A DNA stretch of 11,620 nucleotides from a virus (lineage: Duplodnaviria; Heunggongvirae; Uroviricota; Caudoviricetes). The notes beneath the pieces were generated by a model, which saw only the letters and a program-made list of their open reading frames with translations, searched no databases and was not told the origin of the DNA. The stretch is taken from the IMG/VR virus record IMGVR_UViG_2531839468_000021; one strand, written 5' to 3'. Shown here in pieces: positions 1 to 7,868 of this stretch; position 1 is the first letter of the stretch; every line of letters begins with the position of its first letter. A program made the translations under genes and the position numbers.

Positions 1-456
1 TTGTCGCTGACGGGGCATTATGCCGGAGTCACTGCCGGGCAGCTGTGGACGCTCAGTCGTGCTATTTCCGGGAATGGTATTACGCAACATGCTGCAGCCG
101 GTGCGCTGGCTCAGGTGGTGGGGAGTGGTGCATTTCGTGGAAACGATATCGGTATGGTGGCGAGAGCTGCCGCACAGATGGAGCGATCGGTTGGCCAGTC
201 GGTCAGCGATACCATAAATCAGTTTAAGCGGCTGAAGGATGATCCTGTAAATGCCGCGAAGGCTCTGGACAATGAGCTGCATTTTCTTACTGCCACTCAG
301 CTTGAGCAGATACGCGTCCTTGGGGAACAGGGGCGGTCCAGTGATGCGGCTCGGATAGCCATGTCTGCACTGGCAGAGGAAACCGGTCGACGTACTGCGG
401 ATATTGATAATAACCTCAATGCGCTGGGCAGTACGCTGAAGTACCTGTCTGACTGA
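1..456 (+). CDS. H: Tail tape measure protein (lambda gpH-like), internal fragment; 5' end lies upstream of the window; ends at an in-frame TGA at 454-456 that looks like a frame break rather than a true gene end
   Basis: ORF runs from the window edge in frame 1. The translation (…GTAEQ-type Ala/Gly-rich segment then …NNLNALGSTLKYLSD) aligns by recollection with the central part of lambda gpH just upstream of its …SMWDAVLDIGRPD motif. Position immediately upstream of M is as in lambda. Confidence 0.85.
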   Translation: MSLTGHYAGVTAGQLWTLSRAISGNGITQHAAAGALAQVVGSGAFRGNDIGMVARAAAQMERSVGQSVSDTINQFKRLKDDPVNAAKALDNELHFLTATQLEQIRVLGEQGRSSDAARIAMSALAEETGRRTADIDNNLNALGSTLKYLSD

Positions 457-2102
457 TGGAGCAGTTCTGGGATGCGGCCATGAATATTGGTCGTGAAGAC
501 TCGCTGGATGAACAGATTACCACTTTACAGGAGAAAGTGTCGCGGGCGAAAAGACTCCCCTGGACGGCATCATCTTCTCAGGTTGAATACGATCAGCAGC
601 GTCTTAACGATCTTCAGGAGAAAAAACGCCAGAAGGATCTGCAGGATGCAAAAGAGCAGGCAGAGCGGAATTATCAGGAGCAACAGAAACGACGTAATGC
701 TGAAAATGCTGCACTGAACCGGATGAATGAAACGGAAGCAGCACGACATCAGCGTGAAATTGCGCGTATTAATGCCATGCAGTACGCCGATCAGGCTGTC
801 AGGGATGCGGCGATACAACGTGAAAATGAACGTTACGAGAAAGCCCTGGCATCCGGTAAGAAAAAAACACGCGAAACCCGTAATGATGAGGCCACCCGGT
901 TATTGCTGCAGTACAGTCAGCAACAGGCACAGGTGGAAGGACAGATTGCTGCTGCCAGACAGTCAGCAGGCATTGCCACGGAAAGGATGACAGAAGCGCA
1001 TAAACAGCTTCTGGCTCTGCAGCAGCGCATCAGCGACCTGGACGGGAAAAAACTGACGGCAGATGAAAAGAGTGTACTGGCCCGTAAAGATGAACTGATT
1101 CAGGCACTGACGCTGCTGGATGTAAAACAGCAGGAGCTTCAGAAACAGACGGCACTCAACGAGCTGAAGAAAAAAACAATTCAGCTGACCAGTCAACTGG
1201 CTGAAGAAGAGCGCGCTCAGCGTCAGCAACATGACCTGGATATCGCCACGGTGGGTATGGGTGATCAGCAGCGGCAGCGACATCAGGTACAACTGAGTCT
1301 TCGCCAGAAATACCAGCAACAGCTGGAGCAGTTGAGGCGGGATAGTGAGCAGAAAGGGACATATAACACGGATGACTACAGAAAGGCCGAGCAGGCGCTG
1401 ACGGAGAGCCTGAACCGACAACTGAATGAGAATCGCCGTTACTGGCAACAGCTTGAAGTTGTGCAGGGTAACTGGAAAAACGGAGTCCTGCGTGCATTTC
1501 AGGATTTTACCGTGGATGCAGATAATACGGCAGGAACAGCAGAACAGGTGTTCTCGTCAGCCTTCAGCAACATGGGAAATGGCCTGGCAACTTTTGTCAC
1601 TACCGGCAAACTCAATTTCAAATCCTTCACCTCTTCTGTGCTGTCAGATATGGCGAAAATCCTGGCGCAGGCAACCATGATGAAATCGATAAAAGGGATT
1701 GGCAGTGTACTGGGATTTGATCTCAGCAGCCTTTCCCTGAATGCCAATGGGGGGATTTATCAGTCTGCTGATTTGAGTCGTTACAGTGGCACGGTGGTTA
1801 ACCGTCCGACGTTTTTTGCTTTTGCAAAAGGTGCAGGTGTGATGAGGGAAGCTGGGCCTGAAGCCATTCTGCCACTGCGTCGTGGTGCTGACGGTAAGCT
1901 GGGGGTTGTGGCGGATATTGGTGGTTCAGGTATGGCGATGTTTGCCCCGCAGTACAACATTGAGATCAATAACGATGGCACGAACGGGCAGATAGGTCCG
2001 GCTGCCCTGAAGGTGGTTTATGACCTCGGGAAAAAAGCAGCAGCGGACTTTATGCAACAGCAGTCCCGTGATGGTGGTCTGTTCTCTGGAGGTGGACGAT
2101 GA
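456..2102 (+). CDS. H: Tail tape measure protein (lambda gpH-like), C-terminal portion (548 aa), in frame 3 relative to the upstream fragment
   Basis: Begins MEQFWDAAMNIGRED (cf. lambda gpH …SMWDAVLDIGRPD). Long Q/E/K/R-rich coiled-coil region. C-terminus …NNDGTNGQIGPAALKVVYD…DGGLFSGGGR is the conserved gpH C-terminal signature. Stop TGA at 2100-2102 overlaps the M start (ATGA). Confidence 0.9.
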   Translation: MEQFWDAAMNIGREDSLDEQITTLQEKVSRAKRLPWTASSSQVEYDQQRLNDLQEKKRQKDLQDAKEQAERNYQEQQKRRNAENAALNRMNETEAARHQREIARINAMQYADQAVRDAAIQRENERYEKALASGKKKTRETRNDEATRLLLQYSQQQAQVEGQIAAARQSAGIATERMTEAHKQLLALQQRISDLDGKKLTADEKSVLARKDELIQALTLLDVKQQELQKQTALNELKKKTIQLTSQLAEEERAQRQQHDLDIATVGMGDQQRQRHQVQLSLRQKYQQQLEQLRRDSEQKGTYNTDDYRKAEQALTESLNRQLNENRRYWQQLEVVQGNWKNGVLRAFQDFTVDADNTAGTAEQVFSSAFSNMGNGLATFVTTGKLNFKSFTSSVLSDMAKILAQATMMKSIKGIGSVLGFDLSSLSLNANGGIYQSADLSRYSGTVVNRPTFFAFAKGAGVMREAGPEAILPLRRGADGKLGVVADIGGSGMAMFAPQYNIEINNDGTNGQIGPAALKVVYDLGKKAAADFMQQQSRDGGLFSGGGR

Positions 2103-2428
2103 AAACCTTCCGCTGGAAAGTGAAACCCGGTATGGATGTGGCTTCGGCCCCTTCCGTAAGAAAGGTGCGCTTTGGTGATGGCTATTCTCAGCGTGCGCCT
2201 GCCGGGCTGAACGCTGACCTGAAAACGTACAGCGTGACGCTTTCTGTTCCCCGCGAGGAGGCCACGGCACTGGAATCGTTTCTGGCTGAGCACGGGGGCT
2301 GGAAGGCCTTTCTGTGGACGCCGCCTTATGGCTATCGGCAGATAAAGGTGACCTGCGCAAAATGGTCGTCGCGGGTCAGTATGTTGCGTGTTGAGTTTAG
2401 CGCAGAGTTTGAACAGGTGGTGAACTGA
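2099..2428 (+). CDS. M: Minor tail protein M (109 aa)
   Basis: MKTFRWKVKPGMDVAS…RVEFSAEFEQVVN is essentially the lambda gpM sequence as I recall it, with the same length. GGAGG at 2088-2092 six nt upstream of ATG 2099. ATGA overlap with the H stop and TGATG overlap with the L start indicate translational coupling. Confidence 0.95.
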   Translation: MKTFRWKVKPGMDVASAPSVRKVRFGDGYSQRAPAGLNADLKTYSVTLSVPREEATALESFLAEHGGWKAFLWTPPYGYRQIKVTCAKWSSRVSMLRVEFSAEFEQVVN

Positions 2429-3125
2429 TGCAGGATATCCGACAGGACACACTGAATGAATGCACCCGTGCGGATCAGTCGGCCAGCGTGGTGCTCTGGG
2501 AAATCGATCTGACAGAGATCGGTGGAGAACGTTATTTTTTCTGTAATGAGCAGAACGAAAAAGGTGAGCCGGTCACCTGGCAGGGGAGACAATATCAGGC
2601 GTATCCCATTCAGGGGAGTGGTTTTGAACTGAATGGCAAAGGCACCAGTACGCGCCCCACGCTGGCAGTCTCTAACCTGTATGGCATGGTCACCGGGATG
2701 ACGGAAGATCTGCAGAGTCTGGTCGGCGGAACGGTGGTCAGGCGTAAGGTTTACGCCCGTTTTCTGGATGCGGTGAACTTCGTCAACGGAAACAGCGACG
2801 CCGATCCGGAGCAGGAGGTGATCAGTCGCTGGCGCATCGAGCAGTGCAGCGAACTGAGCGCGGTGAGTGCCTCTTTGTACTGTCCACGCCGACGGAAACG
2901 GACGGCGCTGTTTTTCCGGGACGTATCATGCTGGCCAACACCTGCACCTGGACCTATCGCGGCGATGAGTGCGGTTATCACGGTCCGGCTGTCGCGGATG
3001 AATATGACCAGCCAACGTCCGATATCACGAAGGATAAATGCAGCAAATGCCTGAGCGGTTGTAAGTTCCGCAATAACGTCGGCAACTTTGGCGGCTTCCT
3101 TTCCATTAACAAACTTTCGCAGTAA
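2428..3125 (+). pseudogene. L: Tail tip protein L (lambda gpL-like), interrupted by an apparent 1-nt deletion in a T run at about 2874-2877; frame-1 ORF 2428..3054 carries the N-terminal 149 aa, then frame-3 ORF 2844..3125 carries the authentic Cys-rich C-terminus
   Basis: N-terminus MQDIRQDTLNECTRADQSASVVLWEIDL… matches lambda gpL. After …SELSAVSAS the frame-1 translation becomes Arg-rich nonsense (LYCPRRRKRTALFF…), while frame 3 continues FVLSTPTETDGAVFPGRIMLANTCTWTYRGDECGY…CSKCLSGCKFRNNVGNFGGFLSINKLSQ, the conserved gpL C-terminal Cys cluster. Adding one T to the TTT at 2874-2876 restores a continuous 232-codon ORF, the lambda gpL length. Confidence 0.85.
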
Positions 3126-3130
3126 ATCCC

Positions 3131-3874
3131 ATGACACAGACAGAATCAGCGATTCTGGCGCACGCCCGGCGATGTGCGCCAGCGGAGTCGTGCGGCTTCG
3201 TGGTGAGAACGCCGGAGGAGGAAAGATATTTTCCCTGCGTGAATATCTCCGGTGAGCCGGAGGCGTATTTCCGTATGTCGCCGGAAGACTGGCTGCAGGC
3301 AGAAATGCAGGGTGAGATTGTGGCGCTGGTCCACAGCCACCCCGGTGGTCTGCCCTGGCTGAGTGAGGCCGACCGGCGGCTGCAGGTGCAGAGTGATTTG
3401 CCGTGGTGGCTGGTCTGCCGGGGGACGATTCATAAGTTCCGCTGTGTGCCGCATCTCACCGGGCGGCGTTTTGAGCACGGGGTGACAGACTGTTATACGC
3501 TGTTCCGCGATGCCTATCATCTTGCAGGTATCGATTTGCCGGATTTTTACCGACATGATGACTGGTGGAAATCAGGTCAGAATCTCTATCTGGATAATCT
3601 GGAGGCCACAGGGCTGTATCAGGTGCCGTTGTCATCAGCACAACCGGGCGATGTGCTGCTGTGCTGCTTTGGTTCATCGGTGCCGAATCATGCCGCCATT
3701 TACTGTGGTGACGGCGAGCTGCTGCACCATATTCCTGAACAACTGAGCAAACGAGAGAGGTATACCGACAAATGGCAGCGACGCACACACTCCCTCTGGC
3801 GTCACCAGGCATGGCACGCATCTGCCTTTACGGGGATTTACAACGATTTGGCCGCCGCATCGATCTGCGTGTGA
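3131..3874 (+). CDS. K: Tail tip assembly protein K (MPN/JAMM-like plus NlpC/P60-like domains), 247 aa from the first ATG; an internal Met at 3275 would give the 199-aa form
   Basis: Contains the HSHP…S…D JAMM-type motif (…VALVHSHPGGLPWLSEADRR…) and a downstream Cys/His-containing segment (…DCYTLFRDAYHLAG…NHAAIYCG…). Its 3' end overlaps the I start by 103 nt in another frame, the same overlap I recall for lambda K/I. Confidence 0.88.
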   Translation: MTQTESAILAHARRCAPAESCGFVVRTPEEERYFPCVNISGEPEAYFRMSPEDWLQAEMQGEIVALVHSHPGGLPWLSEADRRLQVQSDLPWWLVCRGTIHKFRCVPHLTGRRFEHGVTDCYTLFRDAYHLAGIDLPDFYRHDDWWKSGQNLYLDNLEATGLYQVPLSSAQPGDVLLCCFGSSVPNHAAIYCGDGELLHHIPEQLSKRERYTDKWQRRTHSLWRHQAWHASAFTGIYNDLAAASICV

Positions 3875-4413
3875 AAACGGGGGCCGAAGCCATCCGGGCG
3901 CTGGCCATGCAGATCCCGGCGTTTCGTCAGAAGCTGAGCGACGGCTGGTATCAGGTACGCATTGCCGGGCGTGATACAGGTGAAACGGAATTATCAGCCC
4001 GTCTTAATGAACCGCTGGCAAATGGTGCTGTGATCCATATCGTGCCGCGTCTGGCAGGAGCCAAAAGTGGCGGTGTGTTTCAGGCTGTGCTGGGGGCGGC
4101 TGTTATGGCGGTTGCTATATGGATGCCGGGGGTAGGAATTATGGCGAGTAATCTGCTGTTTTCTCTCGGTGCCAGTATGACGCTTGGCGGTGTTGCACAG
4201 ATGCTGGCCCCTAAACCCAAAACCCCCCGCACACAGACAACGGATAACGGCAAACAGAACACCTATTTTTCTTCACTGGATAATATGGTTGCCCAGGGCA
4301 ATGTTCTGCCCGTTCTGTACGGTGAAATGCGCGTGGGATCACGTGTGGTATCTCAGGAGATCAGCACAGCAGACGAAGGGGACGGTGGTCAGGTTGTGGT
4401 GATTGGTCGCTGA
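3772..4413 (+). CDS. I: Tail tip assembly protein I (213 aa)
   Basis: MAATHTLPLASPGMARICLYGDLQRFGRRIDLRVKTGAEAIRAL… with a hydrophobic central segment and conserved C-terminus …NVLPVLYGEMRVGSRVVSQEISTADEGDGGQVVVIGR. GAGAGG at 3755-3760 upstream of ATG 3772. The 60-nt gap to J matches the lambda arrangement. Confidence 0.9.
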   Translation: MAATHTLPLASPGMARICLYGDLQRFGRRIDLRVKTGAEAIRALAMQIPAFRQKLSDGWYQVRIAGRDTGETELSARLNEPLANGAVIHIVPRLAGAKSGGVFQAVLGAAVMAVAIWMPGVGIMASNLLFSLGASMTLGGVAQMLAPKPKTPRTQTTDNGKQNTYFSSLDNMVAQGNVLPVLYGEMRVGSRVVSQEISTADEGDGGQVVVIGR

Positions 4414-4431
4414 TGAAAAACGTTTTATGTG

Positions 4432-4452
4432 AAACCGCCTGCGGGCGGTTTT
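4432..4452 (+). other. Stem-loop in the I-J intergenic spacer (8-bp stem aaaccgcc/ggcggttt, 4-nt loop, then T run); possible attenuator or RNA-processing/stability element inside the late operon
   Basis: Read directly: left arm 4432-4439, loop 4440-4443 (tgcg), right arm 4444-4451, which ends in ttt and is followed by one more T at 4452. Preceded by the AT palindrome aaaacgtttt at 4417-4426. Confidence 0.5.
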
Positions 4453-4473
4453 GTCATTTATGGAGCGTGAAGA

Positions 4474-6441
4474 ATGGGTAAAGGCAGCAGTAAGGGGCAT
4501 ACCCCGCGCGAAGCGAAGGACAACCTGAAGTCCACGCAGTTGCTGAGTGTGATCGATGCCATCAGCGAAGGGCCGGTTGAAGGTCCGGTGGAGGGATTAA
4601 AAAGCGTGCTGCTGAACAGTACGCCGGTGCTGGACAGTGAGGGGAATACCAATATCTCCGGTGTCACGGTGGTTTTCCGGGCAGGTGAGCAGGAGCAGAC
4701 ACCGCCGGAGGGATTTGAATCCTCCGGCTCCGAGACGGTGCTGGGTACGGAAGTGAAGTACGACACGCCGATTACCCGGACCATCACGTCTGCAAACATC
4801 GACCGTCTGCGCTTTACCTTCGGTGTACAGGCACTGGTGGAAACCACCTCAAAGGGTGACCGGAATCCGTCGGAAGTCCGCCTGCTGGTTCAGATACAAC
4901 GTAACGGTGGCTGGGTGACGGAAAAAGACATCACCATTAAGGGCAAAACCACCTCGCAGTATCTGGCCTCGGTGGTGGTGGATAACCTGCCGCCGCGCCC
5001 GTTCAACATCCGGATGCGCAGGATGACGCCGGACAGCACCACAGACCAGCTGCAGAACAAAACGCTCTGGTCGTCATACACTGAAATCATCGATGTGAAA
5101 CAGTGCTACCCGAACACGGCACTGGTCGGCGTGCAGGTGGACTCGGAGCAGTTCGGCAGCCAGCAGGTGAGCCGTAATTATCATCTGCGCGGGCGTATTC
5201 TGCAGGTGCCGTCGAATTATAACCCGCAGACGCGGCAATACAGCGGTATCTGGGACGGAACGTTTAAGCCGGCATACAGCAACAACCCGGCCTGGTGTCT
5301 GTGGGATATGCTGACCCACCCGCGCTACGGCATGGGGAAACGTCTTGGTGCGGCGGATGTGGATAAATGGGCGCTGTATGTCATCGGCCAGTACTGCGAC
5401 CAGTCAGTGCCGGACGGCTTTGGTGGCACGGAGCCGCGCATCACCTGTAATGCGTACCTGACCACACAGCGCAAGGCGTGGGATGTGCTCAGTGATTTCT
5501 GCTCGGCGATGCGCTGTATGCCGGTATGGAACGGGCAGACGCTGACGTTCGTGCAGGACCGACCATCAGATAAGGTATGGACCTATAACCGCAGTAATGT
5601 GGTGATGCCGGATGATGGCGCGCCGTTCCGCTACAGATTCAGCGCCCTGAAGGACCGCCATAATGCCGTTGAGGTGAACTGGATTGACCCGAACAACGGC
5701 TGGGAGACGGCGACAGAGCTTGTTGAAGATACGCGGGCCCTTGCCCGTTACGGTCGTAATGTCACGAAGATGGATGCCTTTGGCTGTACCAGCCGGGGGC
5801 AGGCACACCGCGCCGGGCTGTGGCTGATTAAAACAGAACTGCTGGAAACGCAGACCGTGGACTTCAGCGTGGGGGCCGAAGGGCTTCGCCATGTGCCGGG
5901 CGATGTCATTGAAATCTGCGATGATGACTATGCCGGTATCCGCACCGGCGGGCGCGTGCTGGCGGTAAACAGCCAGACCCGGACGCTGACGCTCGACCGT
6001 GAAATCACGCTGCCATCTTCCGGCACCACGCTGATAAGCCTGGTTGACGGGCAGGGGAGTCCGGTCAGCGTGGAGGTTCAGTCCGTCACCGACGGCGTGA
6101 AGGTGAAAGTGAGCCTGGTTCCTGACGGTGTTGCTGAATACAGCGTGTGGGGGCTGAAGCTGCCGACGCTGCGCCAGCGACTGTTCCGCTGCGTGAGTAT
6201 CCGTGAGAACGACGACGGCACGTATGCCATCACCGCCGTGCAGCATGTGCCGGAAAAAGAGGCCATCGTGGATAACGGGGCGCACTTTGACGGCGACCAG
6301 AGCGGCACGGTGAATGGTGTCACGCCGCCAGCGGTGCAGCACCTGACTGCCGAAGTCACCGCAGACAGCGGGGAGTATCAGGTACTGGCCCGCTGGGACA
6401 CGCCGAAGGTGGTGAAGGGCGTGAGTTTATGCTTCGCCTGA
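4474..6441 (+). CDS. J: Host specificity / central tail fibre protein J, N-terminal 655 aa; ends at a frame break
   Basis: [34 protein letters not shown]… and the following ~650 residues are near-identical to lambda gpJ by recollection. GGAG at 4462-4465 upstream of ATG 4474. The ORF terminates as …[11 protein letters not shown], where lambda gpJ continues. Confidence 0.9.
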
Positions 6442-7868
6442 CCGTGGCAGCGGATGACGGCAGTGAGCGGCTGGTCAGCACGGCCCGGACGACGGAAACC
6501 ACGTACCGCTTCACGCAACTGGCGCTGGGGCGGTACACGCTGACAGTCCGGGCGGTAAATGCGTGGGGACAGCAGGGCGATCCGGCGTCGGTATCGTTCC
6601 GGATTGCCGCACCGGCAGCACCGTCGAGGATTGAGCTGACGCCGGGCTATTTTCAGATAACCGCCACGCCGCATCTTGCCGTTTATGACCCGACGGTACA
6701 GTTTGAGTTCTGGTTCTCGGAAACGCGGATTACCGATATCAGGCAGGTTGAAACCACAGCCCGCTACCTTGGTACGGGACTGTACTGGATAGCCGCCAGT
6801 ATCAATATCAAACCGGGCCATGATTATTACTTTTATATCCGCAGTGTGAACACCGTTGGCAAATCGGCATTCGTGGAGGCCGTCGGTCGGGCGAGCGATG
6901 ATGCGGAAGGTTACCTGGATTTTTTCAAAGGCAAGATAACCGAATCCCATCTCGGTAAAGAGCTGCTGGAAAAAGTCGAGCTGACGGAGGATAACGCCAG
7001 CAAACTGGAGGAGTTTTCGAAAGAGTGGAAAGACGCCAGTGATAAATGGAATGCCATGTGGGGCGTCAAAATTGAGCAGACCAAAGACGGCAAACATTAT
7101 GTCGCGGGTATTGGCCTCAGCATGGAGGACACGGAGGAAGGCAAGCTGAGCCAGTTTCTGGTTGCCGCTAACCGTATCGCGTTTATTGACCCGGCAAACG
7201 GGAATGAAACGCCGATGTTTGTGGCGCAGGGCAACCAGATATTCATGAACGACGTGTTCCTGAAACGCCTGACGGCCCCCACCATTACCAGTGGTGGAAA
7301 TACACCGGTATTTTCCCTGACACCGGACGGGCGGCTGACGGCGAAAAATGCCGATATCAGCGGTAACGTGAATGCGAACTCCGGGACGCTCAACAACGTC
7401 ACGATTAACGAGAACTGTCGGGTTCTGGGAAAATTGTCCGCCAACCAGATTGAAGGCGATCTCGTTAAAACAGTGGGCAAAGCTTTCCCCCGGGACTCCC
7501 GTGCACCGGAGCGGTGGCCATCAGGAACCATTACCGTCAGGGTTTATGACGATCAGCCGTTTGACCGGCAGATTGTTATTCCGGCGGTGGCATTCAGCGG
7601 CGCTAAACATGAGAAAGAGCATACTGATATTTACTCCTCATGCCGTCTGATAGTACGGAAAAACGGTGCTGAAATTTATAACCGTACCGCGCTGGATAAT
7701 ACGCTGATTTACAGTGGTGTTATTGATATGCCTGCCGGTCACGGTCACATGACACTGGAGTTTTCGGTGTCAGCATGGCTGGTAAATAACTGGTATCCCA
7801 CAGCAAGTATCAGCGATTTGCTGGTTGTGGTGATGAAGAAAGCCACCGCAGGCATCAGTATCAGCTGA
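6429..7868 (+). CDS. J: Host specificity protein J, C-terminal 479 aa in frame 3, including a divergent C-terminal receptor-binding region
   Basis: [34 protein letters not shown]… continues the gpJ sequence directly after the break. The combined length (about 1131 codons) matches lambda gpJ. The last ~150 residues (…[24 protein letters not shown]…[10 protein letters not shown]) keep the gpJ C-terminal architecture but differ substantially from the lambda LamB-binding domain. Confidence 0.9.

Follow-up and report, generated by a model that had tools for sequence, protein, structure and literature searches.

The split tape measure gene of an Escherichia coli 3030-1 prophage is probably a consensus error close to the end of a draft contig

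Tail tape measure genes of the type considered here are known from phages mEp460 and cdtI and from a prophage of E. coli strain 210221272 (1021 aa; WP_016242589.1, AFM76050.1), where the gene is uninterrupted and is followed by M, L, K, I, J, lom and a tail fibre gene. Lambda gpH (NP_040595.1, 853 aa) belongs to the same family, occupies the same position in the tail module and has a near-identical C-terminus. In the same module, upstream of the tape measure gene, the tail chaperones G and GT provide a true recoding site, a programmed –1 frameshift. In translationally coupled genes with ATGA or TGATG overlaps, the stop and the start share one base. A different source of broken reading frames is the consensus error of draft assemblies at collapsed repeats and homopolymers, which, as is generally known, brings private 1-nt deletions biased towards runs of one base, lesions at contig ends in multi-copy genes and patches in which two alleles are mixed column by column.

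We analysed a stretch of 11,620 nt of prophage DNA (the window), which starts at position 56 of contig AFDT01000021.1 in a 2011 draft assembly (GCA_000225085.2) deposited as Escherichia coli 3030-1. This is the porcine ETEC strain that is named 3030-2 in PMC4358887. The contig begins 55 nt before the window, inside the tape measure gene. An earlier note on this DNA had described a lambda-family tail tape measure gene interrupted at a TGATG junction, and for the record as deposited both the Pfam domains and the ORFs bear this out. The first ORF matches TMP_2 (E=2.4e-32, 112.8 bits), and the second matches Tape_meas_lam_C (80 bits) and TMP_4 (62.3 bits); all three matches lie above the gathering score, and the intact 1021-aa homologue has the same three domains in the same order. 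Downstream, the window continues with M, L, K, I, J, lom and tail fibre genes, as in the three described relatives, while G and T, which precede the tape measure gene in homologues, lie outside it. The gene is thus a lambda-family tail tape measure by its domains and by its position in the tail module. The product of each of the two ORFs is known from one contig only; for the 548-aa product of the second, AFDT01000021.1 is the single source among about 15 billion proteins.

The gene had also been taken for lambda H proper. Since its type is only 29% identical to gpH overall and gpH is 168 residues shorter, it is not lambda H itself; sequence comparison assigns it to the 1021-aa mEp460/cdtI type. 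Nucleotide identity to mEp460, cdtI and the 210221272 prophage is 98.4–99.5% over positions 1–2083 or 1–2200. The closest complete E. coli genome is that of 210221272, a swine strain (99.5% over 1–2200), which carries one copy only of this tape measure type, as a single 3066-nt ORF (1021 aa). The closest phage records, namely mEp460, Ayreon, cdtI and relatives, are 94–98.7% identical, and each encodes its tape measure in one ORF of about 1021 aa. In contrast to mEp460, cdtI and 210221272, the gene in the record is broken by a TGA at codon 473, by a 1-nt loss at codons 475–476 and by another 1-nt loss just upstream of the window. Directly after the junction stands the motif FWDA(A/V)(M/L)(N/D)IGR, which is conserved with lambda gpH.

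Table 1. Parts of the interrupted tape measure gene, lesions at its junction and 1-nt deletions relative to GCA_014461385.1, in window positions
Feature	Position	Strand	Details and basis
Tape measure, middle fragment (codons ~322–472 of 1021)	1..456	+	Frame 1, ends at TGA 454–456; ORF list, translation
Tape measure, C-terminal 548 codons	456..2102	+	Frame 3; ORF list, Pfam
In-frame TGA, tape measure codon 473	454..456	+	Allele A TTA (Leu), allele B TGG (Trp)
1-nt loss, codons 475–476	460..464	+	AG-CAG vs AGTCGT (A) or AAGCAG (B); alignment
Mosaic patch, 21 nt	444..464	+	Difference lists, alignments with alleles A and B
The 460..464 loss as placed against GCA_014461385.1	464	+	Inside the A/B patch; shifts tape measure gene H
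1-nt deletion, TTTT to TTT	2870..2873 (2873)	+	Cuts tail gene L to 208 aa vs 232
1-nt deletion, GAGCTTT to GAGTTT	6425 (6420..6441)	+	Splits tail-tip gene J: 4474..6441 and 6429..7868
1-nt deletion, G4 to G3	11945		Beyond the window
1-nt deletion, C3 to C2	11976		Beyond the window
1-nt deletion, T6 to T5	12246		Beyond the window

The junction is recorded as GACTGATGGAGCAGTTC (also written GACTGATGGAGCAG), and positions 439–474 read AAG TAC CTG TCT GAC TGA TGG AGC AGT TCT GGG ATG. The sequence and the ORF list agree with the positions that had been given for the frame-1 stop, for a TGA in frame 3 (450–452) and for the ATG (456–458) that opens the second ORF. The shift point had been placed within 453–456. 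Alignment with intact homologues leads to a different anatomy: frame 1 is the true frame through 454–460, and a base is lost only at 460–464. The junction therefore consists of two lesions rather than one shift point, a nonsense codon and, 5–10 nt downstream of it, a separate 1-nt loss, which leaves the remainder of the gene in frame 3. Nor are about four residues missing, as comparison with lambda gpH had suggested, for over 1–2200 the window is just 1 nt shorter than its closest homologues, and the four codons at the junction (LWSR or WWKQ in the two natural alleles described below) are present, if garbled. The apparent restart is explained by the same alignment. Natural copies of allele A already contain this ATG out of frame (TTATGG), and it joins the downstream reading frame only through the deletion that follows within a few bases. 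It is the first start past the frame-3 stop and not a conserved initiation site.

A further 1-nt deletion lies 24 nt upstream of the window, at contig position ~32, where GG is reduced to G (AAGGAG to AAGAG) relative to all homologues. With the TGATG junction at contig position ~511, about 0.5 kb from the contig start, the first 520 nt of AFDT01000021.1 contain three lesions that disable the tape measure gene, and the remaining 1.6 kb of the gene contains none. A lambda-family tape measure forms one uninterrupted ORF, the length of which determines that of the tail; the record breaks it at these three places and is alone in doing so, the sister assembly described below and all homologues being intact at 1021 aa.

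Comparison of the window with strain 210221272 over 1–2200 revealed 11 differences, six of which fall inside the short interval 444–464. In natural copies this part of the gene occurs in two forms. Allele A reads AAG TAT CTG TCT GAT TTA TGG AGT CGT TTC (protein LKYLSDLWSRFW; A-type junction sequence GATTTATGGAGTCGT), and allele B reads CAA ACC TTG TCT GAC TGG TGG AAG CAG TTC (protein LQTLSDWWKQFW; B-type junction sequence GACTGGTGGAAGCAG, B-type copy marker CAAACCTTGTCTGACTGGTGGAAGCAG). Aligned with them, the window reads AAG TAC CTG TCT GAC TGA TGG AG- CAG TTC, the stop being the sixth codon shown. All five substitutions of the patch relative to allele A (444 C, 453 C, 455 G, 463 A and 464 G) are the base that allele B has in the same column, and A-type bases are interleaved with them, so that the columns run A A A A B A B B A A gap B B. 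The TGA itself is composed of T, of G from the TGG of allele B and of A from the TTA of allele A, and is a stop in neither allele. The missing base is located at the offset gaps in the alignment of AGTCGT with AAGCAG. Compared with allele B instead, the interval 446–482 shows two differences only, G to A at 456 and the loss of one A. Upstream of the patch (1–440) there are about nine columns that differ from one B-type phage, and the window has the A base in every one of them; a uniform 50:50 mixture of reads would thus fit only if the B-type copy of the strain were otherwise near-identical.

Such a mixed form was not encountered in natural copies. Scanning IMG/VR by pattern yielded 120 stretches, from which 119 copies were tallied: 74 carry allele A and 45 allele B, all are in frame, the variable sites are fully linked, and A/B hybrids are absent among the 119. 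When the 47-nt junction was searched for among 5,426 complete E. coli genomes, the gene being present in about 1,800 of them, the best full-length match reached 89.6%; among 50,697 phage records it reached 87.5%, and the closest partial matches there were copies of allele B differing at two positions. The exact junction 27-mer was not found in metagenome, GTDB-genome and IMG/VR collections. The earlier note had counted homologues that share the two-ORF arrangement among the findings that would overturn its reading; none was found among the approximately 1,800 E. coli genomes with the gene, 17 phage records and 119 IMG/VR copies. We also considered a natural intact hybrid allele (GAC TGG ATG GAG CAG, ...SDWMEQFWD...), one base from the window, which a shift point at 453–456 would imply. 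In IMG/VR its core ATGGAGCAGTTCTGGGATGC was present in no more than two genes, both unrelated, and the levels of the best full-length junction matches in complete genomes and phage records likewise speak against it, so that this allele was rejected.

An independent view of the same prophage was obtained through the 402-aa ORF at the right end of the window, which led to GCA_014461385.1 and several other assemblies. In all of these the same prophage occupies the same chromosomal site, adjoining the bio operon and uvrB; GCA_014461385.1 is the single sister assembly that covers the junction. Over 21.2 kb it is 99.85% identical to the 3030-1 contig. The 8.8 kb of chromosomal flank are identical, and all 32 differences fall in the 12.4 kb (415–12815) of tail module and right-end accessory region. 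At the junction the sister assembly has pure allele A and none of the lesions, and its H (1021 aa), L (232 aa) and J (1131 aa) are all intact. The other outcome that had been expected to overturn the split, a continuous ORF restored by one added base, was thus in essence observed in the sister assembly and in the closest complete genome.

Relative to GCA_014461385.1, the indels of the 3030-1 contig are all 1-nt deletions, six in number, and insertions are absent (Table 1); with the deletion at contig position ~32 the private 1-nt deletions number seven, four of which lie in homopolymer runs of at least 3 nt and another in a GG pair. The deletion in L occurs in none of about 7,400 L copies from complete genomes, and that in J in none of about 8,600 J copies; the best matches of both genes are identical save for the single missing base. 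The contig also contains a second patch, 11–12 substitutions in the N-terminal part of the tail fibre gene (8632–8691), which matches alleles of other prophages at 98.5–99.2%. Since these positions carry the allele of other prophages, paralogous sequence entered the contig at a second place too. An absence of indels from the 8.8 kb chromosomal flank would be expected equally from real prophage decay under relaxed selection.

If the recorded sequence is taken at face value, the split might be functional, with two tape measure polypeptides produced by UGAUG termination-reinitiation, or one produced by programmed recoding, and with tail length still being measured. It is only the form of the junction, a stop and a start overlapping by one base as in coupled genes, that speaks for this possibility, and the caution of the earlier note about translational coupling was well placed. 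Unlike coupled genes or G/GT, the junction has neither a slippery heptamer (X XXY YYZ) nor a Shine-Dalgarno sequence at a proper distance, the 16 nt before the ATG (AGTACCTGTCTGACTG) containing nothing that resembles one, and its overlap results from an in-frame stop and a separate deletion rather than from a designed arrangement. The TGA at 450–452 would moreover force a –1 shift on GAC, where re-pairing is impossible. The sister prophage has one intact ORF, and L and J of the 3030-1 contig are broken as well, so that tails could not form anyway. The two-ORF arrangement is unconserved in every collection searched, and this lack of conservation effectively refutes a functional split, which we regard as very improbable. 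Its strictest version, in which the sequence is correct and two UGAUG-reinitiated polypeptides co-assemble into a working tail-length ruler, would be a split tape measure without precedent among lambda-type phages, and we give it next to no credence. A less exotic possibility, unlikely in our judgement but the main rival of the reading preferred below, is that the lesions are real and that recent inactivation of the prophage has left the tape measure as a pseudogene. In this account a B-type prophage of the same cell would have donated a short gene-conversion tract, which replaced codons ~472–476 of the A-type gene; with the conversion or after it, TGG would have become TGA at 456, one A would have been lost in AAG, and T would have changed to C at 444, while independent 1-nt deletions would have disabled L and J, and with them the building of tails.

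The near-match of 446–482 to allele B agrees with such a conversion, and the spread of damage over three essential tail genes (H, L and J) agrees with inactivation. The lesions are restricted to the prophage and the right-end accessory region and spare the 8.8 kb flank, a distribution that matches relaxed selection. Finished genomes do contain frameshifted prophage tail genes, such as a tail-fibre pseudogene in NZ_CP148374, and the tape measure of vB_EcoS-606R10 is annotated in two pieces, divided at another site. However, the pseudogene account needs a conversion tract and three private point events within 17 nt, two of which (444 C and 456 A) would happen to recreate the base of the other allele in the same column, and heteroduplex mismatch repair of two alleles of equal length cannot remove a base. 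Seven private deletions and about nine isolated private substitutions would also have had to accumulate along about 12.8 kb, while 8.8 kb of flank stayed unchanged relative to a sister strain with an intact prophage. No other assembly or collection searched shows any of the lesions, three of which lie within 520 nt of the contig end.

The split is confined to a single draft, lies close to the end of a contig and coincides with an A/B mosaic, and six further private 1-nt deletions accompany it; for these reasons it is probably not biological, and the view of it as a biological feature found no support. We consider a consensus error in the 2011 draft assembly of E. coli 3030-1 to be the probable origin of the split. 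The damaged record stands beside a near-identical, independent assembly that is intact, and its lesions are located near the end of a contig in repeated sequence, together with other indels that all go in one direction. Lesions at a contig end in a multi-copy gene, private 1-nt deletions biased towards base runs, and a patch mixing two alleles by column are shared with draft consensus errors in general; the 3030-1 contig differs from these in having no indels in 8.8 kb of unique flank. Real bacterial indels are likewise biased towards deletion in homopolymers, which counts against reading the deletions as an artefact.

The error could have arisen as follows. Most E. coli genomes have the tape measure gene, often as more than one copy, and the contig breaks inside this multi-copy gene. 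Near the break, reads from A-type and B-type paralogous copies would have been merged, a B-type copy presumably being present in strain 3030-1. A column-wise choice between the two alleles would then have produced GAC TGA TGG AG- CAG, with a stop that belongs to neither allele and one base dropped at the offset gaps, and the apparent restart would be nothing other than the out-of-frame ATG in the TTATGG of allele A. The other private deletions, mostly contractions of short runs, may reflect weak base-calling or consensus in repeated prophage sequence. Read mixing or base-calling, rather than mutation, appears to be the most economical cause, and the true gene of the strain would be expected to be a single intact ORF of 1021 codons.

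The junction itself has little biological weight. It does not represent a new way of making a tape measure; most likely it is an error or, at most, a dead prophage gene. Were the lesions real, the prophage would be defective in an ordinary way, having lost H, L and J. Should the sequence be wrong, the case is a reminder of the frameshifts and chimeric consensus patches that multi-copy prophage tail genes contain in early drafts, and of the read support that split-gene calls close to contig ends require. The case also illustrates that a column-wise mix of two natural alleles can create a stop that both of them lack (TTA and TGG giving TGA), and that such a mixed-allele stop can imitate a tidy TGATG coupling junction.

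Two other candidates were examined and set aside. As a precedent for a split tape measure, vB_EcoS-606R10 fails in that its record is a partial genome and the site of the split is a different one. An indel problem across the whole contig was considered as well: bioD and bioA are shorter in the gene calls, yet their DNA is identical to that of the sister assembly. The length differences are therefore differences between gene callers, and the flank is error-free.

The tape measure gene (H), split in the window at a TGATG junction (454-456/456-458), shows another 1-nt loss, AAGGAG to AAGAG, at positions 31-33 of AFDT01000021.1, the draft E. coli 3030-1 contig to which the window belongs; this site precedes the start of the window by 24 nt. 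Because of this extra deletion, the gene is in at least three pieces on the contig. We also observed two non-synonymous substitutions in this gene that are private to the 3030-1 contig; its sister assembly (GCA_014461385.1) has the same prophage at the same site with intact H, L and J. One of them changes Tyr to His at window position 1281; the other (GGGGG to GAGGG at 1845) replaces Gly with Arg within the conserved C-terminal motif GAGVMGEAGPE. Neither was found among the more than 100 homologous loci examined.

Tape measure sequences were also encountered in other phage records. A 238-nt unannotated stretch of Aeromonas phage AP1 (GenBank MT713136.1, 254 kb; positions 251326-251563) is 99.2% identical to window positions 771-1008. 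Such similarity to an E. coli tape measure gene is odd in an unrelated phage; it may reflect contamination or a chimeric record. The tape measure gene (positions 1582-4658) in the partial genome of Escherichia phage vB_EcoS-606R10 carries the B allele, one of two natural versions at the junction. Its annotation consists of a pair of CDS, 1582..2565 and 2673..4658, but the site of the split differs from that in the window.

Private 1-nt losses were likewise detected in two further tail genes (see table). In minor tail protein L, contraction of TTTT to TTT cuts the product short, to 208 aa vs 232 aa, and this deletion was present in 0 of ~7,400 L genes from complete E. coli genomes. In tail-tip protein J, the loss at position 6425 breaks the gene into ORFs of 655 and 479 aa and was found in none of ~8,600 copies from complete genomes; the adjoining GGGGG to GGGCG change at 6420 is present in one IMG/VR allele.

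Features of the tail genes and prophage right end (window coordinates; those of the contractions are equivalent coordinates)
Feature	Position	Strand	Detail
Gene L	2428..3054		1-nt deletion at 2870-2873
Gene J, two ORFs	4474..6441 + 6429..7868		lesion region 6420-6441
Tail-fibre N-terminal region	8596-8691		within ORF 8600..9913
402-aa ORF	10412-11620	minus	prophage right end
Contraction G4 to G3	11945
Contraction C3 to C2	11976
Contraction T6 to T5	12246

The tail-fibre N-terminal region contains one contiguous cluster, made up of 11-12 substitutions, relative to the sister assembly, the two being near-identical elsewhere. Tail-fibre alleles found in other prophages match this stretch at 98.5-99.2%; it derives either from gene conversion or from a cross-over, during assembly, of paralogous prophages.

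Past the window end, the prophage-end region of AFDT01000021.1 has a further three homopolymer contractions, likewise private. The prophage adjoins the bio operon and uvrB, and no differences from the sister assembly were observed in this next 8.8 kb of chromosome. The 402-aa ORF has no match in Pfam or NCBIfam; a Peptidase_M91 gene comes after it in related assemblies, and related prophages of other strains harbour type III effector genes at its position.
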